64,000 bases of DNA from Eledone cirrhosa. Its lineage: Eukaryota. The notes below the pieces were generated by a model that was not told where the DNA came from, did no database searches, and saw nothing but the letters and a program-made list of their open reading frames with translations. Positions 4,647 to 64,000 of the stretch are shown here, piece by piece. Where the stretch lies: assembly GCA_964016885.1 (NCBI GenBank), contig OZ024741.1, positions 359,414,001 through 359,478,000 of the forward strand. Direction: 5' to 3'. The translations under genes were made by a program, and so were the position numbers. How positions within the stretch are numbered: position 1 is the stretch's first letter; the number at the start of each line of letters is the position of its first letter.

Positions 4647-6577
4647 TATAAACAATTTAAAACAAACAGTATTGTATCATAGAATCAGGAGTGGTTCCAG
4701 CTGGATTGGTATGAAAATGTTAAGACTAGGGCACCTAAAAATGTCTTTCAACTTCAGATGTTCAAAAATCCTTGCTACAGATTCACACATTCAAAATCAC
4801 ACATGCACACACAAACATGTACACAGACTGACTATTTTTATATTATGGAAAATTCTGATCACATTTCATACAAAATAAAGCCTTTACCATGAAAATACAA
4901 TAAATTTTTCAGTATCACAAATTTTTTTTCAATCCCCAGCCACACAGTCGATGTGTCAGGTCGATCTTGTTATAAAGAATTTTCGTTACAACAAATTTTT
5001 TTTATACCCAATGAATTTCGTTATAACGGAATTTCATTGTATAGAGTAATGTAAATGCTAAAGGGTTAAACCAGCCATATCCACCCAGAATTTTCTCACC
5101 TCTTTCTGATCAAACTATAACCAGCTATAACCAGCTGCTCTTACTGATGTTAAGGTATTGTTCTCAAAATAAATAATATCAAAATCACATAGATTCGATA
5201 TTATGTGAGATATTATATAAGGTAAAGCCTATATTGTGAAAATTTAATAGTAAATATAGAGTAATATAAATGCTAATGTGTTAAACTACTACTAGTTCTG
5301 AAATACAGTACTGTTTGTTTTACAGTGTTTATATTTATCTAAAAACCCTCTATCACAATTTTATTAAGAACACTAGTTTGATAATGGGAAAGTTGGTTAC
5401 ATTACTAAATCCCTTAAATTATTATTTCAAAATTATGTTTAAAATTATAGACAGTGTCTTTTATTAGAGGTGTGGCTACAGTAGGATTACAATATAACAG
5501 ATAATTTCAAATGAAATATTATCTCTTCTGGTGTGTCACATACAATAAAAAATTAATCAAATGTTTTAGTCAGCAAATTCTGTAGTATTTTTAAGCATTA
5601 TACTCATGCTAAACAAAACAACATGTGAACACAAAACATTTGATTATTTTTCTAAACAAATTATTTCCTGAAACTTCAAGAAGGTGACTATAAATAAATG
5701 ATGTAAACAAATAAATAAATTGATTAATATTATTATCTTTTTTGTGGAGAGTACAAGTGATAACTACAGACATGTTTAAGTCTTATTCTGACCTCACCAG
5801 GTGCATGACTAGTGGTTCATTAGGTTGTGGGTTCAATTTTTGAGCAGGCAGAGCAATTGTACTCTTAAGCAAAATGCTTCATTTCATGTTACTTTTCATT
5901 ATAGAATAGGGGTCCACACCATTAAAACATTGAAGAATCCCCCCCCCCCCCCCTATAAGACACAACTTTGCTGGAGGCCAGCTAAATCTACATAGGTGTG
6001 AGCTGTAGATTTATTACAGTCACTGTAATTGCCAAATAGTGATGTAGGAACCATGAAGTAAATGTGGAAGGAGTCAAAGGGTTAATATACTAATGGTGAT
6101 TAGGGTAGTGCATCAGATAAATATTTCTAGTAAGAATAATGTTATGTCACAAAAGGGTTGACATTTTTATAGTTATCTTCTCATTCTCCTCTACATTTCT
6201 ATTTCTTCTTTTATTTCACATTCTATCTTCTGATGAAAGATTAGCGTCCGAAACGTTAAGACACTTTTATACTACTATATCAAGCATTAAACTAATATTT
6301 ATATATCTTCATTCTACTGTGTTGTTTGCTTTAATGCTTTCTGATATATAGAATAAGAAAATGTGAAGTAATTTCAGATATTAAAGTCCTTTATTGATAA
6401 AGCCATGATACATATTTTGATGACGACAATGGCCACGTGATTCTGCATACCCAGTGCCAAAGATGTGGAGGGGGGCTCACAAGGGAACGGGCAAAGGCTT
6501 CAAGACCATCATCTTTGTCCGTTCCCTTGTCATTTCAATTTGGATGGCTTCGGGAACATAACTTTATTATGTAAGAA

Positions 6578-6652
6578 GCTGTCTGATGAGATCATGGCAC
6601 TGGTTAGGCGGAATCGCGTGGCCACTGTCGTTATCGAAATATGTATCACAGC
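6578..6652 (+). ncRNA. Type I hammerhead ribozyme motif with intact core
   Basis: Stem I GCTGT/ACAGC; CTGATGA 6583-6589; stem II GAT.ATGGC/GTCGT.ATC with G-C closing pair; GAAA 6636-6639; minimal stem III; ATC triplet 6645-6647. Overlaps the right arm of an inverted repeat (~6350-6460 / 6595-6705). Confidence 0.75.
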
Positions 6653-6756
6653 CTTATTAATAAAGGACTTTAACATCTGAAACTACTTCGCATTTTCTTA
6701 TTCTGAATATACTCCGTCATTCTTATGTGGAAGAAGTATGTTGAGTATATTTACCG

Positions 6757-6800
<44 letters not shown>

Positions 6801-6996
6801 TTTAAACAATGAAATAAAAATTCAAGTCATTAGAAATATACTTCACTGCTTTACGATCGTTTCTAGGTGATGATAATACATCGTAACCATATTTTGTTAT
6901 AGATCTATGTAAGGTTAGTTACAAAATATCAGATAAGGAAAATATTTATTTACATATATATCACCAGCTGTTGTCAAAAGCAACTTACCGTGGATA

Positions 6997-7027
<31 letters not shown>

Positions 7028-7089
7028 GAAAATGAGGGGGTTTTTTAAATAAAAAAACCAGATGTCCTACACAAGTGAAAATATAAGGG

Positions 7090-7283
7090 AAAGAAATCGA
7101 AAATGCAACTGGAGTCTATTTAAGAGTATTTATTTATTTCCTTTACCGGTTTCACATTTCTTATGCTTTTCAAACCAGAGACCCTCCATCTCATTCTACT
7201 TTTGAAAAGCATAAGAACTGTGAAACCGGTAAAGGAAACAAATTATTCTTAAAAAGACTCCAGTTATATTTTCGGTTTCTTTT
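7090..7283. repeat. Fold-back Penelope pLTR-like remnant with minimal hammerhead-like motif
   Basis: ~85-bp inverted arms (7090-7175 / 7200-7283) between (TA)n tracts; right arm reads TTGAAAA-GCAT..CTGT-GAAACCGGTA-AAGG. Confidence 0.65.
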
Positions 7284-9091
7284 ATATATATATATACATA
7301 TTATATATATATTATATGTATATGTGTGTGTGATTATTTATATGTACATATATATGTGTGTCCATATCTATGTTTGTTTATGTTCTTTAACCTAGTAGTT
7401 TGACTAAAGGAGATCGATAAAATAAGTATCAAATGTGAACAAAATAGATAACGTGGTTGATATGATTAACTAAATCTCTTAAAGCTATTATGGCTGCAGT
7501 CTCATTACTAAAAATAATAATAGAATATAACAATCCAATTCCTTCTCCAAACATTAAATCAGTGTTATCAATTATGTATGACATCATGACATTGTTAACT
7601 AATTAAACACGAGTTTGGTAAATATATATTCTACCCTATCCCCCACCTCATGTCCTAGAATGATTGTAAATATTTATATATATATACAGTATAAATATCT
7701 ACATGTGCGTTTGTTTATTTACATTCACTCTAGTGGAAGACACGCTGACAACATTTGGAGAATATATATCTGTAAGTGTTTACATATTCAACAATGTGTA
7801 TTCTACATAACCACATGTAAAGTTGATAGTTGGTATATTTTGTATGAGTTTTAGCTGGTTTTCAATCAACGAGATCGATGTGATTGATTTACTAGAAAAT
7901 TATAATCTCAATGATCATTTTGATAGACAATTCAAAGTAGATTTATTAACTCTTTTGATCCTGACCCCAAAATGGCTTTATTGACCCTTTTGATTTTAAC
8001 CCATTCAAAACTGCATCTGGTTTTATGAAACGAAACCATCCGTTTCAAAGGGATTCCCATTTAAATTAAAACCTTCCAATAACATTTTATGTGGGAAATG
8101 TGTTAAGTTACTGTCTTAGAAATGAAATAATTATTTGAATAAATCCCTTAAAATTCGTCATTAATTAATTAAAATAGAGTGCAAGTCATTAAAAGTATAA
8201 TCATGAAAAGGTTAACATTTTTATAGGGTTTTTTGGGGGAAAATTTATCATGTTTTGTGTATAAGATCCTTATTTATTCATTTCATAAGGTATTTATTTT
8301 ATGGTCAATTGATAGTTCACAAAATATATTCTGTTGATTTTAGGGTACAGACAAATCACACTTTGTGTTTAACCAAATTTTGTTTTTTACAAACCTTTAA
8401 AACCTTTAAGAGATTGTATTCTCCATGCACCTACCCATAGTTAAATGTTGGCAGGGAAATTTCAAATATATTTGTAAATTATTATAAGACAACATTGTAC
8501 AGTTAGACAAAAAAAATGTTTAATGAAACAAAAAGGGGAAAGAAGAAAAAGAAAACAGAGAATGAAGTAACAAAGGAACGGGAGGGAGGGAGAATCAGAC
8601 ACTACACCCCAGTCTGAGTGGTGATCCGGCCATGCCCTACAGACCGAATGGTGAAGGCATTGCTATGGAGAATGGCCAAGTGTTTTATGGTAAACCAATA
8701 GCATATATTCTTTATTCTTAAACAAGTTTCAATCATTTGACTATAGCCAGGCTGGAACACCAGTCTTAAAGTCGATCATATCAGCCACAGTACCTATTCT
8801 TTTTAAATCTGGTACTTAGTTGATACCTTTTTGTCGACATAAACATAGATAAAGACACTAAGATACACACACGTACAAACACACATACATCATCATCATC
8901 ATCATCATTTTACGTCCGCTTTTCACACAAACAAATACACACACAAATACACACACAAATATATGAAGTTTCTGTCTATGAAATTTCATTCACCTAACAT
9001 TAGTCAAACTGAGGCTGTAGTTGAAGACTTGCTTAATGTGCGACATAGTCAAACTGAACCAAGAGCCATGTCATTGTGAAGCAATCTCTGA

Positions 9092-9300
9092 AACCATACA
9101 ACCATGTTCTCACCTATACAGCCATGTTTACACCTAAACAGCCTTGTCTGCATGTATACAGTCATGCGAGCACCTATACAGCCATGTCTTCACCTATTCA
9201 GCCATGCCTGCAGCTATACAGCCATGTCTGCACCTATACAGTCATACCTGCACCTATACAATTATGCTTACACCTATTCAGCTATGTCTGCATCCACATG
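9092..9300. repeat. 21-bp minisatellite, ~10 copies
   Basis: Unit approximately CACCTATACAGCCATGTCTG(N), degenerate. Confidence 0.85.
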
Positions 9301-12300
9301 ACTTATATTAAGGTGAAAATTTTAAGGTGAATTCATAATGATTTTATGTTTAACCTTAAAAGATTTGTAGGAATTTAGTAACAATAACTAACTTTCTCAA
9401 TATTAAACTGGTGTTTGGAGCATAACTTAACAAAGGTTCTTACATAAAATTGTGAAAGAAAGCTGTTAGATAAATATAAACACTTTAAAATAAAGTTTTG
9501 TATAATAGAATCTGAGGCAGCTTCAGTCAATTTGTTATATAAAAGGATTAAAACAGGAGTGAAATAATCTCCAGACGATATTAACATGTTACATCATATA
9601 TAAATATATACTCAAGGACCAGTGCAATCAATAACAGTGGAGATATTTAATTTTTGGAGTCCAGGATTAGTGTTCTATATATATATATCAGGATTACTGG
9701 ACATATGAACAATCATAGAAACTGGGAAATTTGCGTTTTGATAAATTTATGGTTTGTATAAGAGAAACCCTATAGTTTATGTTGATTACTGAGACATGGA
9801 AGTGATTAAAGATAATAATAATATTTTAATCATTTATTTCTAGGATATGATTACATAAATGTTCAGGATGTATGTACAAATGAAATACAGAATTAGATAT
9901 ATGAGTAACTTTTGAAAAAAAAAAATATTTGCAAGGACAAATATGATTGCAGCAACATGCCTGATATAGAAAATGCATTGTGTCTATGTGTGTGTATATT
10001 TGTGCAGGTACATTTTAGAGAATTACAGATGGCTTATAGCTACAATCAAAATACAAAACTCAAAGCCAGGTTAACTGTCTTGAAATATTTATTAACATGA
10101 TTGCTTACAGATTACAAACTGTTTCATTCCAAATTGAAATTTTCAAAGATCTAAAATTTTTGACACAGCTTAAGAGTCCTCCAGACCATTTGCTAGCAGA
10201 TTTTCTTTGGCTGGATGCCCTTCCTATCACCAACCTCTTTACAGGGTTTACTGAGTGCATTTTTTCTTGGCACCTGCACAAGGGAGGTTATCAGGCATAG
10301 ACTTAACTGAAGGGCCCTCTCTTCCCTATGGGAAGTACTGTAGGGTGGGAATAGGATGGGTGAGGTAAGAAGGATGATAAGTATATCATAGATCAATGGC
10401 AAGAGGTGGAGGAAGTGGCAACTGGTAGTGTTAGAGTGAGAAAGTATATCATGGGTGTGAGACAGATGTGGTGGAGTTTGACTGTGATGAGAGTGTGGGG
10501 ACAGGTAGAAATGATCCTGGGTAGAGTGAGAGTGTACAGTGATGGTGAGAGTAGTTTCTAAGTGATGCAAAAGGGACAGATCACACTATTATGCTAGCAG
10601 GCAAGTCTTCTCTATTACTGCATGTTGCCAATCCTCACGGTCCTTTGTCATCTCTGTTGTGAGGTTCAAGCTCTTATCATTGGCCTTCATTGCTTCATTC
10701 CTTCTCTTCATAGGTTTACCACTTCCAAATCCAATCCAGTGGAATTTTTCTGCTTATATTATACAGCTGTCATCTTCCATAAGTATTACATGTCCATACC
10801 ATCATATTCTTTTCTCTTGCATGTGACATTAGAACCTGCTTATACAGAGTTTTTCTCTCAGTTTGCCTATGCTTCACCGTTCCTGGATACTATTATTCCA
10901 TATGAACTGGAGTATACTCACTTCATTTCTTTCTAGGCTTTATTGGTCTTCATATACCCATGTCTCACTACAGTTCACACATATACATCATACATACAGT
11001 CTACCCTTCATCCCAAGAAGCCCTTTGAATATAATCATCATCATCATTTAATGTCCACTTTTCTATGTTGGAATGGTATGGCTACATGTGTGTATAACTG
11101 TATAGGTGTGTACATGTGTGTATATATATATGTGTGTTTATGGGGATGTGCTGTTGAATCCTAAAAAGGAATGTAACTCTGGTGAACCTAGTCATCTGAT
11201 ATATAGAGATTGGTAAAATTAGTACAAGGCTGGGTTTGATATAATTGACTACAACTTATGAAGGTATCCCAACATAGCAATAGTGTAATATCTGAAACCA
11301 GTAGGAAAGTAAAAGAATATATCATTCCATGGAAACAAGAGTCAAATCGTCAGCAATCTAAGTTGATGACAACAAAAAAAAAAGAAATTATTTCATTTGT
11401 TTGGCAATAGTTACAAGCTTTCATTGTTTGATTTCCTCTGATACTGTTAGCCACTACATATAGTAACAATAACTAATTTCCTCACTATTATGTTGGTGTT
11501 TGACAAATAATATAACAAAATGTCTTACATAAAATCATGATGAAATATTTTTAGATAAATACAAACTCTATATAGCAAACAACCCAGTTTGTAGAGCCAG
11601 GGGCAGTTTCAGGTAGTTTGGTATTTATAATGAAAAATATATTTTCAAATCATTTAAAAAATAATAAAGAATTTGCAGGGATTTATTAAGATATGTAACT
11701 TTTCATTATTAAACTGGGTTTTGGAGCACAACTTACATAAAATTATGATGAAAGATTTTTAGATAAATATAAATACTATAAACAAACAGCTTTGTATTGT
11801 AGAACTAGTGATGGCTTCAGGCAGGCTGGTATCGAAAAGGATAAAAATAAAATAATAACTAACCTGGCCAGGAAAAATATTATCCTCGGTTACTTAGAGA
11901 GAGTGAGACAGAAAGATTGTGTGTACCTGGAGAATATCATTCTCGTGTTCAAGAAAATGAATAAATTTACCCTCATATTTTGAAAGCAACTATTTTAACA
12001 TGTTCTTTTCACGAAATACTCTCCATAAAATCATTTAAAATAATGATATATATTTCTCAGTACTAACTGTCAAACAAAGTGAAATTAAATATTTTGAACT
12101 TCACACGATGTAATGAACATTGCTCTTGATAAGTAGAAAATAGGAGAGATTCATATTGATTATATTGTTGAAATTAAAGTTCATAGAGAATTTGGAACAA
12201 ACAATTTTATCTGCATTATCTAGTTATTTTGACAAACACCTAGGAACATTAACAAAAGTCTAAAACTTTGTTATAGTACTATCAAAATCATTTCATTACC

Positions 12301-12434
12301 ATATTTCTAATGAAAGAATCTGCCGATGATTTTCAAATTATTTTGAAATTAATGAAGTATCTCAAGGGATTTAGAAAATTAACTAAGCTTCTCTTTTATT
12401 TTAACACACTTAGTTATTTTAGAAAAATAACTAC

Positions 12435-12630
12435 GGGTGGTGGATTGGCAGAATCGGTAGAGGGTCCGACGCCCTGCTTTTCAGCATATAGAGTTACGCC
12501 CCTTTACAGTCAGAGTTCTAATTCCGCCAAGGTTAACTTTGCCTTTCATTCTTACGGGGCCGATAAAATAAAGCATCAGTAATGCACTGAGATTGTGGCT
12601 GGCCTTGTGCCCAAAGTAGAAACAATTATT
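12435..12630 (+). mobile_element. tRNA-derived SINE, near full length
   Basis: A-box-like TGGCAGAATCGG, B-box-like GTTCTAATTCC, conserved core and AT-rich tail. Other copies at ~14040-14110, 35721-35819, 51680-51865 and 57110-57295. Confidence 0.8.
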
Positions 12631-14565
12631 AACTCTTACCACTCTGTACCACATGAAAACACATTTGCAAGACATTCTTGAAAAGTACAAAAGAACACTA
12701 TAACTGCATCATATTACAAACTGAAGTTTATTGCAAATTTTCATGGTTTTTCCACTAGTAATGATATTATAAAAATTTGAAATAACAAACCCATTTTTAG
12801 TTATTTTTTTACTGAACCATTACAAAATGTTGAGTTAATGAGTTAATCTGATATCTGGAACATAATTTAACAAAGGTTCTTATAAATAAGATGGAACGTT
12901 TTTAGATAAATATAAATACTTTAAATAAAAGTCTTGCATTGTAGAACCAATAGTCAAAGTGGTTACTGTGTTACCTCTCCATCAGTTCCAACGATGAATA
13001 TTCTAGTTGTTTAATCAATAGATTAACCTACTCATGAAATTAATGGCTGAACATTCTATAGACAGGTGTGCCATTAACATAGTCCTCAGGAAGATTCAAT
13101 GTAACTCACTGTGTAATAAAGCTGGCTCTTTGAATTACAGCTACAACTCATATTTGTCAACCGAGAGGACTGGAACAGCATGAAATAAAGTGTCTTGTTC
13201 AAAGGCATGCCACTTTGAATCACAACATGCCACTTTGAATCAAACTCATGACCTTACGATTGTGAGTTAAACATCTTAACCACTAAGCCACATACCTTCA
13301 CACAGTATATTTACTGACTCAATAAAAATAAAATTAGGTTAATTACAGGAAAATTCCAAGCCGATAGCCTCATTACATTATCATAAAAACCTCTGTCATG
13401 TCACCTGATTTTGATAATTGATATCACTACAGCTATGAGGGAAATAAATTTTAGAGGCTAAGGTTATGCAAAGAGAGAGCCATAAGACTGAGGTTGGGAA
13501 AGAAAAAGGAACCCCCAAAAACTGAAAAATAGGAGAACACCATCCCTTTGTATAACTTACACCCTATTTCCATCAAAATTACAGCTGAAAGAAGCAGTGT
13601 CATTTAATACTCCAGCATAGAAAAGTGGATATAAATCTAATAATTTATTGTTATTTACTGTAACAGCAACAATAACAGTGTGATTGTTGTTATGTCTATT
13701 TTAAATGTTTCTTTTTTGAATATTGTCTAGACATGTATGTGTATGTATGTAGTGGCCAATGGTAACAGCAAGAATCATTTGGTGAAAGGTTATCAGTGCC
13801 CTTCATCCTCCCGGTTTGTCAGCTCAACCTTTCTGATGTGCAGAACCCCAGATGTATACTGACTCGTGACCCCAGTGAACAGAATAGAGAAAGCATTACC
13901 CTAGAAGACAACTTAGGAGACATGCTGAAAAAGCCATTCAAATGTGTAGGACTCACTCATGCAGGTAGCAAACTGGATCCTAATAGCAGCAATGGTTCAG
14001 ATAGAATGCTTTGCGATATTTGTTGTGGCTCTTTGTAATTTTAGTTCAAATCCTACTGAAGTCAGCTTTGCCTTTCATCCATTTGGAGTTCATAAATAAA
14101 ATACCAGTTAAATACTAAAGTCATGGCTTCTTTCTTTCTTTCATGGAAAGAAGGCAGCTGCAGTCAAATCTAGAGAGAGATAGGCTCCAGCAGATTTAAT
14201 TTTTTTTAATATTAGACTGCCCATGATTCTACAATACAAAACTTTATTTTTAAAGCGTTGATATTATTTTAAAATCTGTAATTTTCTTTATGAACCATTG
14301 TTAAGTTATGCCCAAAATATCAGCTTAATCATGAGAAAGTTGATAATATTTCTAAATCTCTCCAAATTCTTAATATTTTCAAAAACTATTTGAAAATCCT
14401 ACGCAATGTCTTTCGTTACAAATATAGTAACAAATGGTTAACTGCCCAAGAAAATCTCTGTCATTATGGTGTCCCTACGATGTTATTGGTAGTTAAGGAT
14501 CCAATGAATATATTGAAATATATTGATTCAATGTTTTTTGTTGTTTTTTTTAAACATAGATCAAA

Positions 14566-14736
14566 ATGTTAACAACACTAGATCCTGAGATTGAAAAATG
14601 CTTAAAGCAATGTGAACTGCAAAATTCTGCTAGTCCTATGACTAAGCAGTACTTGAAGCTTAATATCCTGACAAAAAGATATGCCAAAGGACTGAACCCA
14701 ATTAATATTACGTTTACTGGAGAGAAAAAATATGAA
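14566..14736 (+). CDS. ATF3/Fos-family bZIP gene, first identified coding exon
   Basis: Polypyrimidine tract and acceptor ..aaacatag at 14559; ATG 14566; SPMTKQYLKLNILTKRYAKGL resembles the ATF3/JDP2 pre-bZIP P..KEEL...I...R motif; phase-0 donor GTAAGT at 14737. Confidence 0.75.
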
Positions 14737-14817
14737 GTAAGTTTTATTGGTTTCTAAGTTTGGGATAATATCAAATATTTGGTTGGAGGGAATATATATA
14801 TATATATATATATATAT

Positions 14818-15759
14818 GGGGAGGGTGCTCTGAAAGTACTGTAGCTAGAGTCAGAACTGGTTGGAAAAAGTTCAGAGAGCTTATACCACTATTAGCTGCT
14901 AAAGGGTTCTCACTAAAAATGAAAGGCAGGTTGTACGATGCCTGCATACGAACAGCAATGCTGCATGGCAGTGAGACCTGGGCATTGTGTGCAGAGGATA
15001 TACGCAGACTAGAGAGGAACGAAGCTTGCATGCTCCGCTGGATGTGTAACAGTAATATACGTGAACGGCAAAGCATAAACGAACTAAGGAAAAAATTAGA
15101 GATAAGAGGGATCAGATGTTGTTTACTCGAGAAAAGGCTACGTTGGTATGGACACGTGATGCGCATGAAAGTCGATAGCTGTATAACAAAGTGCAGGGCA
15201 ATAAAGATAGACGGTAGTCACGGAATAGGCAGACCTAGAAAAACCTGGGACGAGCTGATAAACTCCGACATCACACACTTACACCTCTCCAAGACAATGT
15301 CACTGGACCGAGACCTTTGGCGGTACTCAGTAACAGAGAAGACCCGCCTTACCTAAATATATAGTAAAACCTACTCCAGCCAGTAGGCATCTCTAACAAA
15401 ATACACCCCGTCCCACCACCACCACCCCCACCCCATCCACACCACCCCGTTCTATGTAAAGTTATGTTGGTGCCGCGCCATCGAGGCCGAAACAAATGAG
15501 ATCGTGTAGGTGTCACGACAAAAAAAACACACAGTCCACGCTGTAATGTGGCCGTGTAGGCAACACGGTAAAAACCTCCCAGACCCACACTGTAAATGTG
15601 GTTGGTGTTAGGAAGGGCATCCAACTGTAGAAAACCTGCCAGACAGTCCTATGCGAGCAAGACAATCACTCTTGCCTCAAGTGGGACTACCCCCGTCCAA
15701 ACCCATGCAAGCGTGGAACACGGACGTTAAACGTTGATGATGATGATGATGATGATGAT
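14818..15759 (+). mobile_element. RTE LINE, 5'-truncated copy 1 (intronic)
   Basis: ORF 14919..15356 is near-identical to the end of 28554..30998; (GAT)n tail; inserted in (AT)n. Confidence 0.95.
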
Positions 15760-16239
15760 ATATATATCATCATCATCATCAGCATAGCACACTCTGTAAG
15801 GAGGTAATGTTGGTACCATGATAAATTGTACCCAGTCACCCTGAAGTGGTAGTACTTGTGCCACAATAAAATATACCCAGCCAACTCTGTAATGGAGTAG
15901 TGTTTGTGTTGTGATACAATGCACCCAGTCCACCATGTAAAGTGTTAATATATGCTGTAAAGTAGTTGGTATTAGGAAGGACATCTAGCCATAGAAACCA
16001 TGCTAAATTGGAATGTATGAGCATTGACATGGTTCTCTGACCTGTCTATTCTCAGAACATGACAACTTGTCCAACCCATGCCAGCATGAAAAATTGACTT
16101 AAAATTGTGATGATAATGATGTAAGCATGTGTATGTGACATAATTCTGATTTCAATGATAAACAAGATGATAGATGATAGTGGAGAAGCAAATGAGATAT
16201 TCCTTGTGTTAACCCTAATACTTTTGTCTATGTGAACAG

Positions 16240-16347
16240 TTGAGACCTGAAGAGGAGCTAAAGAAAGAGAAACGACGTGAACAGAACCGGAGAGCTGCTG
16301 CTAAATGTCGCAACAACAAAAAATGGGAAGCAAACCTTTCTATAGCT
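16240..16347 (+). CDS. ATF3/Fos-family bZIP gene, basic-region exon (108 bp)
   Basis: aacag|TTG...GCT|gtgagt; encodes LRPEEELKKEKRREQNRRAAAKCRNNKKWEANLSIA with the N-x7-R basic motif; same 36-codon phase-0 exon as in Fos/ATF3 genes. Confidence 0.9.
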
Positions 16348-16410
16348 GTGAGTAGTTTATACTTTACTTTTACTATTTTCACTATTTCAATACTGCTTTG
16401 ATCTTTTTAA

Positions 16411-16600
16411 CCCTTTAGTACCCGGCCAGAATTCTCTCACCTCTTTCAGTTCAAACCAGCTGTAACCGGCCTCTCATACTGATGTTAAAGTAGTCTTCTC
16501 AAAATAAATTATATCAAAATCTCATAGATTCGATATTATGTGAGGTAAAGCCTTTAACATTAAAATATAGTAAATACAGAGTAATGTAAATGCTAAAGGG
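16411..16600. mobile_element. piggyBac-like MITE, family 1, in bZIP intron
   Basis: TTAA|CCCTTTAG ... CTAAAGGG|TTAA; homologous to 1759-1966. Confidence 0.85.
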
Positions 16601-16918
16601 TTAAATAGTGATTTGTTCTTAATTGAAAATAGTTAATTTTGACTGAATTAAACTAGTGATATATATTTTCATGAGCATTTTTTTTTTTTTGTTGAAGGTT
16701 TGCATATAGGCAACTTTTGTCCCAACAGTATTATAAATTGAGATAACTTAATCCCTGTACTGGCTGGTTCAATGGGTTGATATGATTAAAACATCAATGG
16801 GATTGTTCCCTGTCGTCAGTATTTAAGAAAGGAAGAATAAGGTACGACAGTTTGAAAACATTAACACATGATATACTGTAACCTATTTTAATGGATTACA
16901 TTTTGTTTTGTTTTTCAG

Positions 16919-19150
16919 AATCTCTTGAAAGAAGAAGAAAAACAAAGAAGTTTACAAAATGACATATTCAAATTAACAGATCTGAAAGAAAATATGGTAA
17001 ATCTTCTGTCTTGTTACACATATGAGGACAGAGACAGCAACAGCAATGAATTCTGGGACCATTCTAGCTGCAGTAATATCAATCAAAACTGGGAAATGCA
17101 GACTTACAGAGAAAAGGAATTGTATAAAACACAGTACATTATTGATAATTCCTTGTTTAACACACAACCTTCACATTCAAATACATTGAACAGTCATCAG
17201 CAGCAGATTTATTATCCATCAGTTTCCGTTGAAGCAACCTCTTCTGTAAATGTTTCTTTTCAGAAATATAACCAATCTCAAAATTCTTCAAACTTTAATG
17301 ACATTTATTATTTTCCTTGTCCAGCTAATTTGGATAATAGTGGAACTTCCAATATCTACAGCAACATTCCAAATGCTTCTGCCTCTAGTTCTATGTTTGA
17401 TTCAAAGCACAGTCTTCATTGTTATGAATCTGTTGGTTTGGGGACTGCTTTTGATGGCAGTATCTATGAGAATTTCCAAACATCTGCCAATATAAATAGC
17501 AACATCAAACAGAATGTATCTACTATTATAAATAGCAACATTAATGTTAGTGCACCTGTAAATGATAACAGCAACATTGATTTTGGTGCACCTGTAAATG
17601 ATAACAGCAACATTGATTTTGGTGTACCTGTTGATGTAAATAGCAACATTGATTTTGGCGCACCTGTTGATGTAAATAGCAACATTGATTTTGGTGCACC
17701 TGTTGATGTAAATAGCAACACTTGTTTTGGTGCACCTGCCAATGTAAATAGCAACACTTGTTTTGGTGCACCTGCCAATGTAAATAGCAACACTGGTTTT
17801 GGTGCACCTGTTGATGTAAATAGCAACATTGATTTTGGTGCACCTGTTGATGTAAATAGCAACATTGATTTTGGCGCACCTGTTGATGTAAATAGCAACA
17901 TAGATTTCAGTGTACCTGTTGATGTAAATAGAAACACTGGTTTCTGTGTACCTGTTGATGTAAATAGCAACATTGATTTTGGTGTACCTGTTGATGTAAA
18001 TAGCAACAATGGTTTTGATGCACCTGCCAATGTAAATAGCAACACTGGTTTCAGTGTACCTGTTGATGTAAATAACAACATTGATTTTGGTATACCTGTT
18101 GATGAAAATAGCAACACTGGTTTCAGTGTACCTGTTGATATAAATAGCAACATTGATTTTGGTACACCTGTTGATGAAAATAGCAACACTGGTTTCAGTG
18201 TACCTGTTGATATAAATAGCAACATTGATTTTGGTACACCTGTTGATGTAAATAGCAACATTGATTTTGGTACACCTGTTGATGAAAATAGCAACACTGG
18301 TTTCAGTGTACCTGTTGATGTAAATAGCAACATTGATTTTGGTACACCTGTTGATGTAAATAGCAACACTGGTTTCAGTGTACCTGTTGATGTAAATAGC
18401 AACATTGATTTTGGTATACCTGTTGATGTAAATAGCAACATTGATTTTGGTACACCTGTTGATGTAAATAGCAACATTGATTTTGGTATACCTGTTGATG
18501 TAAATAGCAACACTGGTTTCAGTGTACCTGTTGATGTAAATAGCAACATTGATTTTGGTATACCTGTTGATGAAAATAGCAACACTGGTTTCAGTGTACC
18601 TGTTGATGTAAATAGCAACATTGATTTTGGTATACCTGTTGATGTAAATAGCAACACTGGTTTCAGTGTACCTGTTGATGTAAATAGCAACATTGATTTT
18701 GGTATACCTGTTGATGTAAATAGCAACACTGGTTTCAGTGTACCTGTTGATGTAAATAGCAACATTGATTTTGGTATACCTGTTGATGTAAATAGCAACA
18801 CTGGTTTCAGTGTACCTGTTGATGTAAATAGCAACATTGATTTTGGTACACCTGTTGATGAAAATAGCAACACTGGTTTCAGTGTACCTGTACCTGTCAA
18901 TGAAAGTATTGAAATCAACTTCAATTCACATAAAAATATAAATAGCAACATAAACTATGACACATATGGTAATGTAACTAACAATAAATTTGCTGATAAG
19001 AACAGCAACATTATCTTTTGTGTAGCAGCTGTCAATGACATGCAGTTAGAGAACATTGGTTTCAATTTGAATGAAGTCAATTATTGCAATCAAAACATGA
19101 ACAAAATATTTGATCTACTACCATTTGATAGATCCTGTGTCTCGAATTAA
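16919..19150 (+). CDS. ATF3/Fos-family bZIP gene, last exon: zipper plus repeat-rich C-terminus
   Basis: Acceptor ttttcag at 16918; NLLKEEEKQRSLQNDIFKLTDLKENMVNLLSCY aligns with the Fos zipper; in frame with ORF 16925..19150; candidate AATAAA at 19239. Spliced product 836 aa from Met 14566. Confidence 0.85.
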   Translation, partial: NLLKEEEKQRSLQNDIFKLTDLKENMVNLLSCYTYEDRDSNSNEFWDHSSCSNINQNWEMQTYREKELYKTQYIIDNSLFNTQPSHSNTLNSHQQQIYYPSVSVEATSSVNVSFQKYNQSQNSSNFNDIYYFPCPANLDNSGTSNIYSNIPNASASSSMFDSKHSLHCYESVGLGTAFDGSIYENFQTSANINSNIKQNVSTIINSNINVSAPVNDNSNIDFGAPVNDNSNIDFGVPVDVNSNIDFGAPVDVNSNIDFGAPVDVNSNTCFGAPANVNSNTCFGAPANVNSNTGFGAPVDVNSNIDFGAPVDVNSNIDFGAPVDVNSNIDFSVPVDVNRNTGFCVPVDVNSNIDFGVPVDVNSNNGFDAPANVNSNTGFSVPVDVNNNIDFGIPVDENSNTGFSVPVDINSNIDFGTPVDENSNTGFSVPVDINSNIDFGTPVDVNSNIDFGTPVDENSNTGFSVPVDVNSNIDFGTPVDVNSNTGFSVPVDVNSNIDFGIPVDVNSNIDFGTPVDVNSNIDFGIPVDVNSNTGFSVPVDVNSNIDFGIPVDENSNTGFSVPVDVNSNIDFGIPVDVNSNTGFSVPVDVNSNIDFGIPVDVNSNTGFSVPVDVNSNIDFGIPVDVNSNTGFSVPVDVNSNIDFGTPVDENSNTGFSVPVPVNESIEINFNSHKNINSNINYDTYGNVTNNKFADKNSNIIFCVAAVNDMQLENIGFNLNEVNYCNQNMNKIFDLLPFDRSCVSN
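17554..18890 (+). repeat. Coding 33-bp tandem repeat, ~40 copies (PVDVNSNIDFGx / PVDVNSNTGFSV)
   Basis: Visible in the DNA (cctgttgatgtaaatagcaac...) and in the translation, with no frameshift or stop across the array. Confidence 0.97.
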
Positions 19151-20904
19151 AACATCTTGTGTACATCTTTATTGTGGATCACACTATGTTAGTGCTATTG
19201 CTAATTTATACTAATTGGTCAAGCCTACACTATATGTAAATAAACTTTCACCAAGAATAGTTTGTTTACAAAATCCATAAGAACATATTATCTTCCATGC
19301 CACATCATATGGACATAAGTGCTGATGATGAGTAATGACTCTGAAATACAAGCATACACAACTCCTAGTTCAATGCTGATGTAGCTGTGACATGATCACG
19401 GTGATAGTAAATGTATGTTTACTGCATTAAACATGTCAAATATTGGTTTATATGCACCTTTATTTTATAAAATTATGGATATGTGACCATCCCAAACAGA
19501 TGACAATGGTTTGGATTTCTAAAAGTACCAAATAGCAAGAGAGGAAATTTACACAAAAGATATGTGTATATCCTGGTTTTTAGAATAGATACATCGTATC
19601 CCTGTATGTTGCAAGAGGCGATTAATAGGGTTGGTGTCAGAAAGGGTATTTAGCTGTAAACATTGCCATAAAACAGCCCATTCAACCCATACCAGCATAG
19701 AAAATTGGACTTAAAAATGATGATGATATGGATATGTACCTGTCCCAATGAACACAAACATATGACAATTTCTGTCTTTTACAAAAATAGAACTCTAAAA
19801 GTATCAAATAGCAGGATAGGCAGTCAAGAAATTTGCTCAAAAGATATAGGGAAATACTAATCTTTCTCTACAAAAGACTTTTATGTGTTCCACATCTCAA
19901 ACATATTTATGGAATTACTTTGGGAAACATTTTACTAGAGCCTGAAGGAGTACACGAAAGCTTATGTAAGCATGTGGTTTTGTGTTAGGGTGTTTATGTC
20001 ATGAGTTTGATTCCTAGCAATATATTTCCCTAAACAACACTTATTTCATGTTGCTCCAATCCACTTAACTGTAAAAAAAAAAAACAGTCAGCCAGTACTT
20101 CAAAGAGCCAGTCATGTCTCACACCGAATTTCCGAGATGAAGACGGATTGTGACAGAAAGCTGTGCTGCAGAAGACATGTCTGACTCATGCAAGCATGGT
20201 GAGGTGGATGTAAAAATAATGATAGTGGTGGTGGTGTTATTGTTGTTAGTGGAGGTGATGTTGGTGATGATAATTATGACTAATATGCTTTTGAGTCACT
20301 TACAGATTATAGCAATAAAAAAAAAGCTGAAAACAAATGCAAAATAGTTAACAGAAACTATTTGTATGTAACCCTAAATTATTTAATGTATGTATTTATT
20401 TTTGTTTTACATAACTTATTAAAATTTTTTTGATAAACAATATATTTATACAGTTTTATTTATTGTTTTAATTTATTTCTTTATTTCCACACTGTAAACA
20501 TAGTTGGTGTTAGGAAGGGCATCCAGTTGTAAAAACCCCATCCAAAATACAGTTCCATTTCAGCAAGGTACGGCATGGCCAACAGGCCAGACTTGTATCA
20601 TAACCTGGATGACCTATCTAACCCAAGCAAGCATGGATAAATAGACGTTAAATGGTGATGATGATGATTTATGTTATTCCCAGCTGAAAATAGACAGGTT
20701 TGTCTCTCCGGTGAAAGAGAAGACAACATTGCATAAAACACAAGTAAACATTGTAGTGCTGCGGTATACAAAGATAGGTTGTAAACAGAGCTGGCACCTG
20801 GGTATTTAGCGCCCTAGACTAGCTCTACGATGTGACACCTTATTCTTGTCACCAACGACGATACATCCAACTCTTGGTAGAAGGGAGAATGGACGTAAAC
20901 TGAT

Positions 20905-23075: not shown

Positions 23076-23264
23076 GATAAATCTACCAAGAGTTTACGGT
23101 AGTGTCCAATCCGTATGAAGAACTCAATGTAATCCGGATATCATGGAAAGAAGAGATGCAAAATCACTTTCGGTGAAAGATAAACGGAATACAGAGTCAA
23201 GATAAAGTATTAAAAAAATAATGAATAAAACAATGAAACAGTTCCTTATATTAAACAAAAAAAG

Positions 23265-23407
23265 TTCATTATTTAACGATCGTTTCTAGGACATATATGT
23301 GTTAGAATTGGCATGCATATTCAACAGATCTATGTACAAAATTATACAAACTATCAAATTTAATATACATACCAACACATACATATGCCGTCTTCAGAAA
23401 TAATGAA
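23265..23407 (-). ncRNA. Type I hammerhead ribozyme motif with long stem II (sense to the Penelope ORF)
   Basis: Minus strand: TTCATTATTT-CTGAAGA-CGGCATATGTATGTGTTGG...CTAACACATATATGTCCTA-GAAAC-GATC-GTT-AAATAATGAA; 10-bp stem I. Confidence 0.72.
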
Positions 23408-24515
23408 ATATATTTATTGATAATAACAACAATTCAAAATTACAGGTCTGTTTGGGAACAGAGTTCAAATTGACCAATGAAATACACAAAAATATATCAA
23501 GAAAATACAGTTAGGTGTGTGTATATATGTAAGTAACTTCGTTCACAGATATGCATAAAAATATATGTTCACATGCATACGCATGTCGAAAAAATGTATT
23601 TAAATACAAAAATTCAGGGCTAATGTCTCTGTATGTTTATAATCTACAGACAAAATACACATACGTATATAAACATATATACATTCATATATACACACAT
23701 ATACATACATTCACACACACACGCGCATATACACATAAACATACACATAATCACGAACATACACACACACACATATGTATATATTATTATTATAAGCATA
23801 TGGACATTAAGGCGCACACATAAGCACTGCCACATATATTTACATCTAGATGCAGAAGTAGGTAAGGGGGTCAGTAATTACTACGGGTGTCAGACAACTG
23901 CCTATTTAGGAAATGTATCTATAAATTTAGAAATAAAAAGAAATATATTAAAAAAAATATATAAACAAGTAAAATATAAAATACACATCGATATACATAT
24001 ATATATATATACACATATATATACATATATATACACACACATATATATAGAGACACATACATATATAAATACATAGACACATATACATACACACATATAT
24101 ATATATACATATATTCACAACACACATATATATATACACACACATATGTACATACACATATACACATAGATACCCATATATATATATACACATACACACA
24201 CATATATACACACACACATATACACAGATATATATATATATATATACATACACACACACATATATATAGACACACACACATACATATACGTATATATACA
24301 CATACACACATCCATGTATGCATATACACATACAACCACATGCTCACACAACTCAGACATACATAAATAAAGAGATATATATATACACATATACATATAT
24401 ATCTATATCTATATATATATATATATATACATACACATAAATATATACACACACACACACACACACATATACATACACATATACATATATATATATATAT
24501 ATATACATATATATT

Positions 24516-24551
<36 letters not shown>

Positions 24552-24575
24552 TACACACAGTCAGACAATTATGCA

Positions 24576-24606
<31 letters not shown>

Positions 24607-24728
24607 ACACACATCTCTACAAATATATATACTCACATACACATGCACACATACATATATACAAACACACATATACATATAGACATATATATACACATAT
24701 ATATACACATATATATATATACATATAT

Positions 24729-24765
<37 letters not shown>

Positions 24766-25411
24766 CAATCATACACGCTTATTTACATGCGCACATATGT
24801 ATTTTTATACTCACATACAAACACCCAAACATACATACCTACATACATACACATACATACATCCACGCTTACAAATACAAATAATTATAGGGGGGGGGGG
24901 GATTAAAATTATTAGTAGGAAATAGTAAATATAGGTTTCAAGGAACATAGAATATTAATCTGCATTTAGATCATAATATGTGTTTACATAGTAGTTTCAG
25001 TATTAGGAAATGTAAGAAAGAAGGCAAAATTATGCATTTTAATATAAGTAGACTATTAATTATAGGTTAACTAAATTAAAAATAGTTAATATATTGATTT
25101 CTAAGGTGTATACTACTTAGGTTTATAATATTTGAAGTGGAATTTTGAAGTTAAACAGTAGTAGAGTATTAATTATAGCATAACTAAATTAAAAATATTA
25201 ACATTATGGTATCAATATTAGGAAATGAATTTAGTAATAGGGAAAACCAAATCAAGTATTTCATCGGTAGTAGAATATAAATTATAGGTTAACTAAATTA
25301 AAAATTATATATTAATTTCTATAGTATATGTTAATTAGGTTTATAATAATTAAAGCAGATTTTGTATTTTATCTATAGTAGAATATAATTATAGGTTAAC
25401 AAAAATTAAAA

Positions 25412-25453
<42 letters not shown>

Positions 25454-25912
25454 ATTGTAAAGAATATATTAATTAGGTATATATTTAAAAATTTATCTCA
25501 GTTTATGATTACATGATATTCTGCAATCCATCTGTATTAGAATTTTAATTTTAAGCTAATTAAATTAAAATTATAGGTTAACTAAATTAAAATTAATTTA
25601 TAAATAAATTTCTAAATTGTACATTAATTAGGTTTATAATATTAAAAAATATTTTTCTGTCATTGATTACACAATATTTTGTTATATTTCATGTAAAGGA
25701 ATTTTAATAAAAGGTTAAATAAACCAAAATTAATCTATAAATTAATTTACAAAGTATATATTAATTATGTTAATAATATTTAAAAGTTTTTCACAATTTA
25801 TGATTACACAATATTTTATAATCTCATCTGTAGTAGAATTTTAATTAAATTAAATTTATAGGTTAACTAACATTTAAATTAAATTATATATTAATTTCTA
25901 AAATATATATTA

Positions 25913-28276
25913 TTAATTAGGTTTATAATATTTAAATGTTTTTCTCAGTTTATGATTACACGATATAATTAATTCCTGTCGCTTATTTAATAGGATATCC
26001 TTAGATTTCATTATTTCAAATAGTTCATGGGAACATAATCTACATTCATTTTTATTATTTTGATAAGGGGTGGCTCTTTTGAGCACACTCCAGGTCATAT
26101 CATATTCTATATTCTTATTTCTATAACTATTAATTTTTTCTGCTAGAGATGTTGTATTAGCCAGTGCGGCATTTTTAAAACTATGTTTGTGGGTATTAAA
26201 CCTTACCTTAAAATTGTTAGAAGCAGCTCCTATATATGAGCAAATAGAATCTTTAGTTTTAACATTACATTTATAAACTATGTTGTTAACAAGACAATTT
26301 CCTTTTAATGGGCAGTTTGCTTTGTTTCTACAGTTACAACCTTTCGTTAATTCTGTATTTGAGGAGATATTATGGTTAGTTTGATGTATTGGTGGTATAC
26401 TTATGGTATTTTTACATTTATATGCATTATAGGCACCTATATCTTGTTTTATGTTTTTGGTTGTTGAGTATGAGAATTTAACTGTTGACCTATTTAAGAT
26501 TTGATGGTATTTGTGGTTTGGCGGGAAGTTTTTCTCTAGGATATAAAAAAATTTTTTAGCAATATTATCCTTAATTTGTAAATTAAATGGAGCATTATAC
26601 CAAGTAACTCGTCTATTACGGTTTCTATGTTGTTTATTATTTTTATAGGTTGTATCGTGATGTTTACTAGGAGGATTAATGTTAATGACCTCACCACGCA
26701 CATTTTTAGTTAGATTTATTGATTTAGGTGTTTTATCTTGTTTATTAGGAGTTTTATTATTAACATTTATTAGAGTTGTATGATGAGTAGTTTTTTGAGA
26801 GTTACTATACTTTATATTAGAGGAGTTGTTGGTATTTTAGGGTATAGTGTGGGTGGCATTTAGGTGTGTACTTTTCATTTGGTGTTTGTTGGTAATATTA
26901 GGTTGTATGTTTATAGTATTTTTAGTAGAAGGTATATATTCTAATCTATTTTTGTGGCCACTTCTATCTAGAGCTTCGTTATAGAAGGTCGCATTTTTAT
27001 CAAATACATCTTGGTTAGACGAAAGGTTAGAAATTCTAAGTGATATATTATATGCAAGGTTTTTAAGGATAGATTTAGGGTGATTAGATTGTGAGTGTAT
27101 GTAGTGTAAGTTTTGGTTGGGTTTATGGTAAGGTTGGTAGATACCCGTAGCTAAGTCTAAAGTTATATCTAGGAAATTAACTACTTTACTTGTGTTTTCA
27201 AAAGTAATATGAAGACTATAATAGTCTTTAAGGAAAGTTCTAATAAGCTTTTTGTTTTTTTCTATTTCTGAAAGGCTAAGGTTGTTGGAAAGAAGAAGAC
27301 AGTCATCACGATATAAACCACCTTTAAGGTGGGGAAAGGAAGCATTTATGTTGAAAAGAAGAAAGAGGCCCACAAGATCAGTAATTTGGGCGGAATCGCT
27401 TGAACCCATAGTAATATCAAATAGATTACTATATGTGTTTCTGGTCCAGTATTCATTCTGAAATTCAATAAGTGTTAGTCTAGCATGTGTAATAATATTA
27501 ATGTCATCCAAAGTTAAGTTAGATCTATTTTTAGCAAATATCAAAGCTTTGTTCAGGAGTATAGGTGATATAGAAGAATAGTAATTATCTATATCAAATT
27601 GTAGAAATGAAGCAGAAGATTTACATCTAATATTTTTAAACCAGTTAATTACCTGGGAAGTGTTTTCCCAGAGTGGTAAATTAACATGTTTTCTTATTTG
27701 TGGGATGACTCTATCCAAAATTTTTTTGCTAATTATTCCAATATCAGATTTGGAGGGACATATAAGTCTTATAGAAGGATTTGAGTTAAAGTTTGATTTA
27801 TGATCCTTCAGGTTGAAGTGTGGTCTTTTCAATGCCAAAGGTTCAGTTCTATCTTCAATGTTTAGTTTTTTTACTATGTTGTGTGTTTTGTTGTTGATGT
27901 TGGTGAGTGACGCATTATTAGATTTTTTATAATTTTTCTTGAGTTCTTTATATATGAACTCATTATAATCTTCAATATCCATGTGATACAAGTTTCCAGT
28001 TTTGTCCGAGTGGACATGGATTTTTTTAGACTTTTTTAGGTCCAATAGGGTAGAATCAAGGTCCTTTTGAAAGACAGATTTATACTTCTTAAATTTGAGG
28101 TGTTTAATTAAATTAAAAAGGTCTTCCTCAAAGTCTTCAAGTAGAGAGTTGTGTGGTGGATTCTTGTAAGTATTGAAATCATACATATATTTCCTATCTG
28201 CATATTTAGATTTTTTATCGAAGTGGTAGGCCCTCCATCTAACTCTTCTGATAAATTGGTTAGTTTTCTGTATCAT
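25913..28276 (-). pseudogene. Penelope-like RT-GIY-YIG ORF with one in-frame TAA and an N-terminal truncation
   Basis: RT motifs FDI..YYSSI, MGS, GLYRDDCL, NFLDITLDL, PYHKPN; linker CNC..CPL.GNCL; IVYKC...YIG endonuclease. The two ORFs share a frame, and the 45 codons between them are open apart from TAA at 26837-26839. Confidence 0.9.
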
Positions 28277-28560
28277 AAGGAGTAAGAAGTAAAATGCATA
28301 ATTTTGCCTTCTTTCTTACATTTCCTAATACTGAAACTACTATGTAAACACATATTATGATCTAAATGCAGATTAATATTCTATGTTCCTTGAAACCTAT
28401 ATTTACTATTTCCCACTAATAATTTTAATCCCCCCCCCCCTATAATTATTTGTATTTGTAAGCGTGGATGTATGTAAGTGTATGTATGTAGGTATGTATG
28501 TTTGGGTGTTTGTATATGAGTATAAAAATACATATGTGCGCATGTAAATAAGCGTGTATG

Positions 28561-28605
<45 letters not shown>

Positions 28606-28750
28606 ATATATGTATATATATATATGTGTATATATATGTGTATATATATGTCTATATGTATATGTGTGTTTGTATATATGTATGTGTGCGTGTGTATGTG
28701 AGTATATATATTTGTAGAGATGTGTGTATGTATATATATATATATGTGTG

Positions 28751-31395: not shown

Positions 31396-31424
31396 ATGTG
31401 TGCATAATTGTCTGACTGTGTGTA

Positions 31425-31521
<97 letters not shown>

Positions 31522-31968
31522 GTGTATGTATATGTGTGTGTGTATATATATTTATGTGTATGTATATATCTATAGATATATATGTATATGTGTATATATA
31601 TATATCTCTTTATTTATGTATGTCTGAGTTGTGTGAGCGTGTGGTTGTATGTGTATATGCATACATGGATGTGTGTGTGTGTGTGTATATACGTATATGT
31701 ATGTGTGTGTCTATATATATATGTGTGTGTGTATGTATATATATATATATATCTGTGTATATGTGTGTGTGTATATATGTGTGTGTATGTGTATATATAT
31801 ATATGGGTATCTATGTGTATATGTGTATGTACATATGTGTGTGTATATATATATGTGTGTTGTGAATATATGTATATATATATATGTGTGTATGTATATG
31901 TGTCTATGTATTTATATATGTATATGTATGTGTCTCTATATATATATGTGTGTATATATATGTATATC

Positions 31969-32031
<63 letters not shown>

Positions 32032-32616
32032 CGATGTGTATTTTATATTTTACTTGTTTATATATTTTTTTTAATATATTTCTTTTTATTTCTAAATTTA
32101 TAAATACATTTCCTAAATAGGCAGTTGTCTGACACCCGTAGTAATTACTGACCCCCTTACCTACTTCTGCATCTAGATGTAAATATATGTAGCAGTGCTT
32201 ATGTGTGCGCCTTAATGTCCATATGCTTATAATAATAATATATACATATGTGTGTGTGTGTGTATGTTCGTGATTATGTGTATGTTTATGTGTATATGCG
32301 CGTGTGTGTGTGAATGTATGTATATGTGTGTATATATGAATGTATATATGTTTATATACGTATGTGTATTTTGTCTGTAGATTATAAACATACAGAGACA
32401 TTAGCCCTGAATTTTTGTATTTAAATACATTTTTTCGACATGCGTATGCATGTGAACATATATTTTTATGCATATCTGTGAACGAAGTTACTTACATATA
32501 TACACACACCTAACTGTATTTTCTTGATATATTTTTGTGTATTTCATTGGTCAATTTGAACTCTGTTCCCAAACAGACCTGTAATTTTGAATTGTTGTTA
32601 TTATCAATAAATATAT

Positions 32617-32769
32617 TTCATTATTTCTGAAGACGGCATATGTATGTGTTGGTATGTATATTAAATTTGATAGTTTGTATAATTTTGTATAATTTTGTAC
32701 ATAGATCTGTTGAATATGCATGCCAATTCTAACACATATATGTCCTAGAAACGATCGTTAAATAATGAA
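32617..32769 (+). ncRNA. Type I hammerhead ribozyme motif (inverted pLTR copy)
   Basis: Mirror of 23265-23407; CTGAAGA 32627-32633, GAAA from 32748, GTT 32757-32759. Confidence 0.72.
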
Positions 32770-32825
32770 CTTTTTTTGTTTAATATAAGGAACTGTTTCA
32801 TTGTTTTATTCATTATTTTTTTAAT

Positions 32826-32857
<32 letters not shown>

Positions 32858-34988: not shown

Positions 34989-35500
34989 TAATATATTGAG
35001 ATTTACACAGAATACAAAATTAGTGCGGCTCTTCACGGCAGAGATTCTAATTTCTGTCGTATATATAACACACGTGAGCGAGAAACTGCTATCACTACAT
35101 ATGTATCTTCAGACACCGGTCACAATCCGCAGGCTTCATTCATAAAATATAAGTATGGAAGAATATAAGTGATATAATCGGTAGTAAATTTGAATGAATT
35201 CATGTGTCAAGCTTCACTAGCGGCTCGCCTAACAGAGGTAAAGTAAAAACGATATATTGTCAATGAACGGACAACACATCGTCTTACTTATGTACAATAA
35301 TAACTTCAGAAGGGCTTTAACAGTCGAAATAAACAATCCTTTATTAAATGATACATTTAATAAACTCTATACAAAAGTTAATTAAATCCCTACATACCTT
35401 GCGGATTAACAGAAATGGCTTAATTATTATTTTATGGACAGAGCTAAACGAAAGGATATATGTGTATGCAGGAGACGAGGCGTCACAAAGTCTTTGGTTA

Positions 35501-42872: not shown

Positions 42873-43077
42873 ACTTACTTTATGTTATTCTGCTACTGTA
42901 AGGAGGGGCGTTTTGGCTGTTTCGTACAATACACAAATTATTTGATATAACTCGTTGTGTATTGTACGAAACAGCCAAACGCGTCGCCGATAGGATTTAC
43001 CTACATTGCCGATAGGATTTACCTACATTGCCGATAGGATTTGCCTACATTGTTGGGAGATTGTTTGTCATAGGGAC

Positions 43078-63992: not shown

Positions 63993-64000
63993 TTTTGAGA

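Follow-up and report, generated by a model that had tools for sequence, protein, structure and literature searches.

Is a minisatellite that makes up half of a transcription factor a new functional domain, or has the protein simply tolerated its growth? The locus that raises this question lies in 64,000 nucleotides of the Eledone cirrhosa genome (GCA_964016885.1, contig OZ024741.1, positions 359,414,001 to 359,478,000, forward strand). We refer to this whole stretch as the window, and number positions from its first letter. As predicted from the sequence, the locus is a real, divergent and intact-reading octopod gene of the Fos/ATF3 family of basic leucine zipper (bZIP) factors, with a lineage-specific, in-frame expansion of 37 units of 12 amino acids (aa). 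We consider it probable that the array arose by minisatellite turnover within a low-complexity tail and has been tolerated there, and that it is not a new functional domain.

An intact and divergent bZIP gene

When spliced computationally, three exons with AG and GT ends (Table 1), all in phase 0, yield a protein of 836 aa with one stop at its end. An earlier, sequence-only reading of this DNA had proposed this model, and its coordinates, canonical splice sites and single stop were all verified. Among 125 AG sites, the acceptor at 16919 ranks first (101.0 bits, against 97.4 for the next site and 89.6 for read-through) when scored with a family hidden Markov model (HMM) built without the window gene and without its orthologue. 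A family HMM made without the window gene gives 34 bits to exon 1 alone and about 100 bits to the spliced N-terminus. The parts of exon 3 outside the repeats are open beyond chance: of 5000 dinucleotide shuffles of each, 0 stayed free of stops for the 160-codon part and 4 for the 87-codon tail. The gene is single-copy in the 3.0-Gb genome. No RNA entry is listed with a match to exon 3. The three matching sequencing runs listed represent one sample, with DNA-like contigs that cover the introns and, among the rows shown, no splice joint of the model.

Table 1. Features of the bZIP gene, in window coordinates
Feature	Position	Strand	Remarks
Exon 0, probable	7703-7771	+	5' end unsure; tblastn match and in-frame joint to exon 1
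Exon 1	14560-14736	+	Acceptor 14559/14560; ATG at 14566, 6 nt past the acceptor; coding part 14566-14736, 171 nt, 57 codons; molluscan Fos/ATF3 N-terminal motif (K.xL+xxILxKRxxxG)
Exon 2	16240-16347	+	108 bp; codes for the basic region, with its N, A, A, C, R signature intact, and the zipper's first heptad
Exon 3, whole	16919-19150	+	2232 nt
Exon 3, start	16919-17017	+	Remaining zipper, 33 aa
Exon 3, linker	17018-17554	+	179 aa, Ser/Asn-rich; ends in two worn units of the repeat (17483, 17519)
Exon 3, minisatellite array	17555-18886	+	37 units of 36 bp
Exon 3, tail	18887-19150	+	87 aa, Asn-rich; worn in-frame unit copies (18893, 18929, 18989); stop TAA
AATAAA, candidate polyadenylation signal	19239-19244	+	89 nt past the stop; from sequence

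The identity of the protein as a Fos/ATF3-family bZIP factor, also part of the sequence-only reading, is borne out by the basic motif, the 108-bp exon, the exon layout of the orthologue and paralog, and an upstream K..L...I..KR..KG motif; both motifs are common to the closest paralog. The bZIP profile search suggested at that time gives a match to Pfam bZIP_1 (E 1.7e-5, exon 2 scanned alone) at 25.3 bits, below the gathering score of 27.6. An ATF-3-like protein of Gigantopelta also falls below this cut-off (19.4 bits). The best PDB matches of exon 2 are FosB and c-Fos, both weak (E 0.07-0.5).

The basic region is intact, and the zipper lacks its first two leucines. PMC4736632 lists Asn13, Ala16, Ala17, Ser/Cys20 and Arg21 as bZIP contact residues, and 31, 38, 45, 52 and 59 as zipper leucines. 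Measured against that list, all five basic-region residues are present (N-R-R-A-A-A-K-C-R), while the zipper positions read S, E, L, L, M, that is, two Leu and one Met of five. Over the whole zipper the d positions are S-E-L-L-M-Y here and S-E-L-L-M-V in the orthologue, and the first zipper leucine is missing in several molluscan relatives too. Because the orthologue has the Ser and Glu as well, they are a conserved trait and not decay; the sequence suggests a weaker or more selective dimer. On its own, the zipper fragment has no bZIP match in the PDB (one Homer coiled coil, E 0.2) and scores only 3 against the octopus ATF3 last exon, and its placement rests on the orthologue alignment and the family-HMM acceptor scan. 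The basic region (AAAKCRNxKK) is like the human ATF3 row in PMC4736632 Table S1, and the zipper positions L, I, L, K, L/M, L agree with that row by eye. It differs from vertebrate ATF3, JDP2 and Fos in the Ser and Glu at the first two zipper leucines and in its long repeat tail. A separate Fos-like exon occurs on C28, as compared by eye with the FOS rows in the PMC4736632 supplement.

Presumably the protein would dimerise, with Jun the probable partner, by way of a weak zipper of three heptads and would bind AP-1/CRE-like sites in that form. Factors of the ATF3 type form pairs with Jun and in many cases lower AP-1 output; by analogy, this factor might act as a weak activator or as a competitor of canonical AP-1. 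AP-1 sites in the window are not above chance (7, against 10.25 expected).

Orthologue, paralog and long-tailed relatives

A HMMER profile search of 1.84 billion representatives returned 515 matches at E <= 0.001, and relatives were drawn from the best 150 of these. The orthologue is a 435-aa protein of Octopus bimaculoides (XP_014786529.1, UniRef A0A0L8FVJ6), with a partial model in O. vulgaris (CAI9730595.1) from which the matching last exon is missing; both are predicted models. The gene had been described as hidden, yet its orthologue is already annotated in these two Octopus species, though under misleading names. The database names are 'homeobox protein 2-like', 'bromodomain and WD repeat-containing' and 'BZIP domain-containing'. 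One result of this work is a corrected annotation for the second cephalopod ATF3-like gene, listed in databases as 'homeobox 2-like'. For the two ATF3-like genes, three Octopus models seem to carry wrong last exons.

The O. bimaculoides protein has splice joints identical to those of the window gene and the same S-E-L-L-M zipper. Identity is highest at the N-terminus (exon 1, 48/57 or 84%; exon 2, 29/36 or 81%) and lower in the zipper (17/33, 52%) and, over aligned residues, in the linker (90/157, 57%) and tail (39/76, 51%). The orthologue has no array but about four worn motifs, and its C-terminus is about 27 aa longer; past the zipper it has 309 aa, against 710 in the window protein.

The closest paralog is the canonical short cephalopod ATF3-like gene, here called C14. 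Like the window gene, it is coded in three exons separated by phase-0 introns; in both, the LRPEE exon measures 108 bp and exon 3 opens with Asn. The two also share an acceptor a few bases 5' of the ATG, a first exon ending YE/GT (the slash marks the exon end) and an N-terminal K.EL..IL.KR motif. Exon 1 is 36% identical to its C14 counterpart over 33 aa, and exon 2 is equal to its counterpart in length and phase. The first coding exon of C14 is 80-86% identical to Octopus and Argonauta proteins. Canonical cephalopod ATF3-like proteins (C14 and those of O. sinensis, O. vulgaris, Argonauta and Sepia) are 178-211 aa long, with a short tail and the first zipper leucine kept.

Quick trees were built from molluscan-type relatives and Jun (40 and 25 of 146 rows), leaving out P0001, P0004 and P0005, whose last exons look mis-predicted, and five matches that were too short or lacked a usable motif. 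Neither canonical Fos nor ATF3 of vertebrates or arthropods is in the set, and the label 'ATF3-like' is therefore based on the layout of the exons, the motif and the names in databases. The window gene and the orthologue are fully supported sisters, and their long branch lies among proteins of gastropods and bivalves. The C14 group forms its own clade (99), apart from this pair, but a clade uniting the cephalopod genes is not rejected (approximately unbiased test, p 0.31, 25 rows).

The wider family, which is expanded in molluscs and annotated as ATF-3-like, c-Fos-like or Fra-1-like (Gigantopelta, Haliotis, Lottia, Magallana, Pecten, Biomphalaria), shares the N-terminal motif and bZIP region, has often lost the first zipper leucine, and tends to long low-complexity tails with occasional repeats. 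That ATF3 and JDP2 proteins are small, as the sequence-only reading had it, is true of canonical cephalopod ATF3 (178-190 aa) but not of this long-tailed family or of the orthologue. Tails past the zipper exceed 150 aa in 41 and 300 aa in 19 of 142 measurable molluscan-type relatives. The tail of the window protein is the longest measured (at most 596 aa among those relatives), and its array is the largest and most regular in the set. A near-perfect 16-aa repeat of about 7 copies in the tail of a predicted protein of the scallop Argopecten irradians (XP_069118038.1) is, judged by sequence, an independent repeat gain within the Fos/ATF3-like family, and a predicted protein of the snail Physella (XP_059178182.1) has a tail repeat with an 8-aa unit.

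Word-based homologue searches returned 0 of 1066 candidates (408-1301 aa) for residues 1-215 of exon 3 and 0 of 7 for exon 2; these blanks carry no weight because the orthologue was missed there and was found by the full HMMER search. In the ESM Atlas the best array look-alike scored 0.86, and exon 1 had no usable match. A literature search on ATF3 of octopus, cephalopods or molluscs, or on the array repeat, outside bioRxiv supplements and subscription papers, found no paper on the gene, and passages of PMC8369891, PMC10027321 and PMC5849342 hold nothing specific to it.

Make-up and origin of the array

Tandem Repeats Finder reports a period of 36, 37.9 copies, 86% matches and 0% indels at 17529-18891. 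In register, this amounts to 37 full units of 36 bp, 18 of them distinct, that encode residues 306-749 (444 of 836 aa, 53%). The claim that the repeat makes up more than half of the protein was therefore right, but its description as about 40 units of 11 aa was not: PVDVNSNIDFGx, the unit given, itself has 12 letters. Units are of type A (..NIDFG[AVIT]) or type B (..NTGFSV), and in the 3' half the two types take turns, forming a higher-order repeat of 72 bp. Such A/B higher-order alternation is typical of minisatellite turnover. A Pfam match of the array to DUF7415 (E 7e-16 summed, with no single passing stretch) was set aside as a repeat artefact.

The array had also been called frame-preserved, and it is in frame and free of indels. 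However, its open frame proves little, because three of its six frames are open and none of the 108 single-base changes of the consensus unit makes a stop in the coding frame. Minisatellites that are indel-free and open occur away from known genes in the E. cirrhosa genome. Upstream of the canonical C14 ATF3 (L020:6577-9285) we noted a 39-bp minisatellite of 44 copies with 0% indels and a 586-codon open frame, apparently intergenic; such frames therefore arise easily in this genome.

Where did the array come from? Worn in-frame copies of the unit occur on both of its flanks and match it at 21-24 of 36 nt, where 22 is the highest background value over 61,600 positions. The orthologue has four worn motifs of the NxI[DN][FY] type, one of which matches a window unit at 8 of 12 residues. 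The unit is otherwise confined to this locus: all 20 matches of a 24-nt unit pattern in the 3-Gb genome, and all 17 matches of a protein search, fall inside the array. Because worn copies flank the array, related motifs occur in the orthologue and the unit is unique to the locus, a single motif from an old and degenerate series appears to have been amplified in place. Growth was likely by slippage or unequal crossing-over, and the unit could expand because its 36 bp divide evenly by three and any one base change leaves it without a stop. On sequence comparison, the array is unique to this locus and, among the proteins found, to this lineage. Lineage-specific minisatellite expansion, as the sequence-only reading had suggested, is thus upheld by an orthologue without the array and a unit found nowhere else in the genome. 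The proposed check of repeat number in an orthologue contrasts an array-less O. bimaculoides gene with 37 units here. With one complete orthologue compared, gain in the E. cirrhosa lineage is the simpler reading of the sequences, and loss in Octopus the less simple one.

What the array may do

As a tolerated product of turnover, the array would be a near-neutral lengthening of a tail that was already long and of low complexity, and it may tune stability or partner binding. It would be dispensable for the core job of the factor, because the orthologue lacks it. The unit variants fit this reading, with no clear excess of silent changes (7 of 22 distinct variants against 21-27% expected, P 0.17-0.39). 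Several points weigh against this reading. That a transcription factor is doubled by 444 aa without effect is a strong assumption. The array is not a plain disordered spacer, because hydrophobic and polar residues alternate strictly (V, V, S, I/T, F and V/A/I/T on even positions), all 37 units keep P1, N5, N7 and F10 unchanged, and a FoldIndex of +0.08 places it slightly on the folded side by charge and hydropathy. The count of silent changes is crude and of low power, as it sets distinct variants against one consensus with no tree. Array loss in Octopus is less likely yet possible, since a single complete orthologue was compared, and that orthologue, scanned in full, also stays below the bZIP_1 cut-off (22.9 bits, E 9e-5).

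The same alternation, invariant residues and FoldIndex value are what might be expected if the array had been newly recruited to a structural role, as a domain with Asn ladders that forms a beta-solenoid or a cross-beta arcade and whose self-assembly offsets a zipper that lacks its first two leucines. AlphaFold2 does place one strand per unit and models the array as a beta-solenoid, with block pLDDT values (predicted local distance difference test) up to 78 in the A/B region and a mean of 45.0; other models reach 28-39. The top Foldseek row is the curli protein CsgA, at E 0.31 the weakest of this evidence. However, AlphaFold2 has a known bias to build solenoids spuriously from near-perfect repeats, according to PMC11795689, and when this DNA is read in its antisense frame it too is modelled as a solenoid, at pLDDT 65.5, above the coding frame. 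There is no Foldseek match at E <= 0.001. Each 12 aa contain one Pro, a charged or polar residue occupies the would-be core position in 8 of 37 units, Glu or Asp points inward in 7 units, and the weak zipper is found in the array-less orthologue as well. We therefore regard a structural domain as unlikely, and the solenoid raised in the sequence-only reading loses to its antisense control. Also unlikely is the fuller scenario in which a worn motif grew into a 37-unit amphipathic, self-assembling Asn-ladder array, solenoid or amyloid-like, that would confer zipper-independent, copy-number-tuned oligomerisation on an AP-1 factor. Were self-assembly true, the array-less Octopus orthologue would be its natural before-state.

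The array may instead be kept out of the protein, by splicing, by early polyadenylation or as part of a decaying allele. Weak GT donors recur in the units with scores of 3.8-4.0, matching one donor that is used in C14 (3.8), a donor of 5.8 lies at 16996, and an AATAAA occurs at 18983. Exclusion nevertheless appears quite unlikely: the last exon of the orthologue is one coding stretch through the matching region, the amplified motif included, both array flanks are stop-free beyond chance in the same frame, and the branch of the window gene is shorter than that of the orthologue (0.08 versus 0.26-0.28), with no sign of decay.

The first proposal, that an ATF3-type factor became a strong activator through an array serving as a multivalent acidic-aromatic domain for activation or condensates, we find improbable. 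The repeat segment of 446 aa has a net charge of -60, and each unit contributes one Phe and one Ser. We applied the rule in PMC10550315, by which a 39-aa tile needs a charge of -9 or below and at least seven W, F, Y or L on the CITED2-VP16 line. None of the 406 array tiles, and none of the 798 tiles across the entire protein, pass it, whereas 18 of 145 other family members have passing tiles. The array has no Trp or Leu, and its tiles carry 3-4 W/F/Y/L and charges of -1 to -8. The false-negative rate of the predictor is high, and phospho-regulated domains are missed, as PMC10550315 notes.

An assembly error that collapsed or over-expanded the repeat is very improbable, since although short-read contigs are too short to span the array and its copy number comes from the assembly alone, the 18 distinct units form an ordered pattern, both flanks agree with one sample's short-read contigs, which show 0 other letters there, and the array occupies 1.3 kb within a 416-Mb scaffold.

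The O. bimaculoides and E. cirrhosa genes form a clean before/after pair, with about four worn motifs in the former, 37 fresh copies of one of them in the latter, and a doubled protein. The pair can be used to ask whether large coding minisatellites in transcription-factor tails alter activity or ride along. As things stand, the array is a curiosity and not a new mechanism, and tail repeats recur in the scallop and snail models of the family.

Upstream exon and other features of the window

Position 7703-7771 is probably an additional upstream exon of the gene, overlooked in the sequence-only reading. The stretch 7703-7783 matches the N-terminus of the O. bimaculoides model P0152 (tblastn over 54.6 kb; 48% over 31 aa, E 1.8e-5), and a GTAAGT donor behind 7771 joins the acceptor of exon 1 in frame, giving FGEYIS/IKM against FGNIS/VKM in O. 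bimaculoides (slashes mark the joint). The donor scores 5.2, outside the top 12 among 432 GT sites in 6500-14500. An in-frame ATG at 7703 would bring 25 further aa, for a total of 861. If the transcription start is set by a TATAAA at 7690, the exon belongs to the 5' untranslated region, and the TATAAA favours this over the longer protein. A 90-codon frame with an ESFGE stretch at 13766-14035 was considered for the same role; it has no Pfam match, and 7703-7771 is preferred.

Just 5' of the probable exon, the TATAAA is preceded by TGACATCA at 7579 (3 in the window), which we take to be a CRE/AP-1-like variant. By its sequence, 7579-7695 is a possible, putative stress-inducible promoter.

The intron between exons 1 and 2 holds 940 bp (14818-15757) with 99.7% identity to 30460-31398. 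That stretch is the 3' part of a non-LTR retrotransposon (LTR, long terminal repeat) with reverse transcriptase (RT) and PHD regions (28548-30995); a further copy lies near 59650-61065. By sequence identity, the intronic piece is a young retrotransposon insertion.

Elsewhere, 34044-35108 (-) encodes an intron-less short-chain dehydrogenase with an N-terminal hydrophobic stretch (adh_short, E 3e-32), which we assume to be retinol-dehydrogenase-like; the gene is possibly a retrocopy. A long inverted duplication spans 23202-32832, pairing 23202-24580 with 31396-32832 (89%) and 24589-25041 with 28290-28745 (98%). It flanks two open frames at 25916-28315 (-) with no Pfam match, presumably Penelope-like. 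A 15-bp minisatellite at 61875-63993 (140 copies, 4% indels) has long partial open frames and looks non-coding. Two LTR-retrotransposon pol regions (RT, RNase H, integrase) lie on opposite strands at 39178-48263, where the one at 43353-47225 (+) appears nested in a (-) element with parts at 39178-42164 and 47550-48263.

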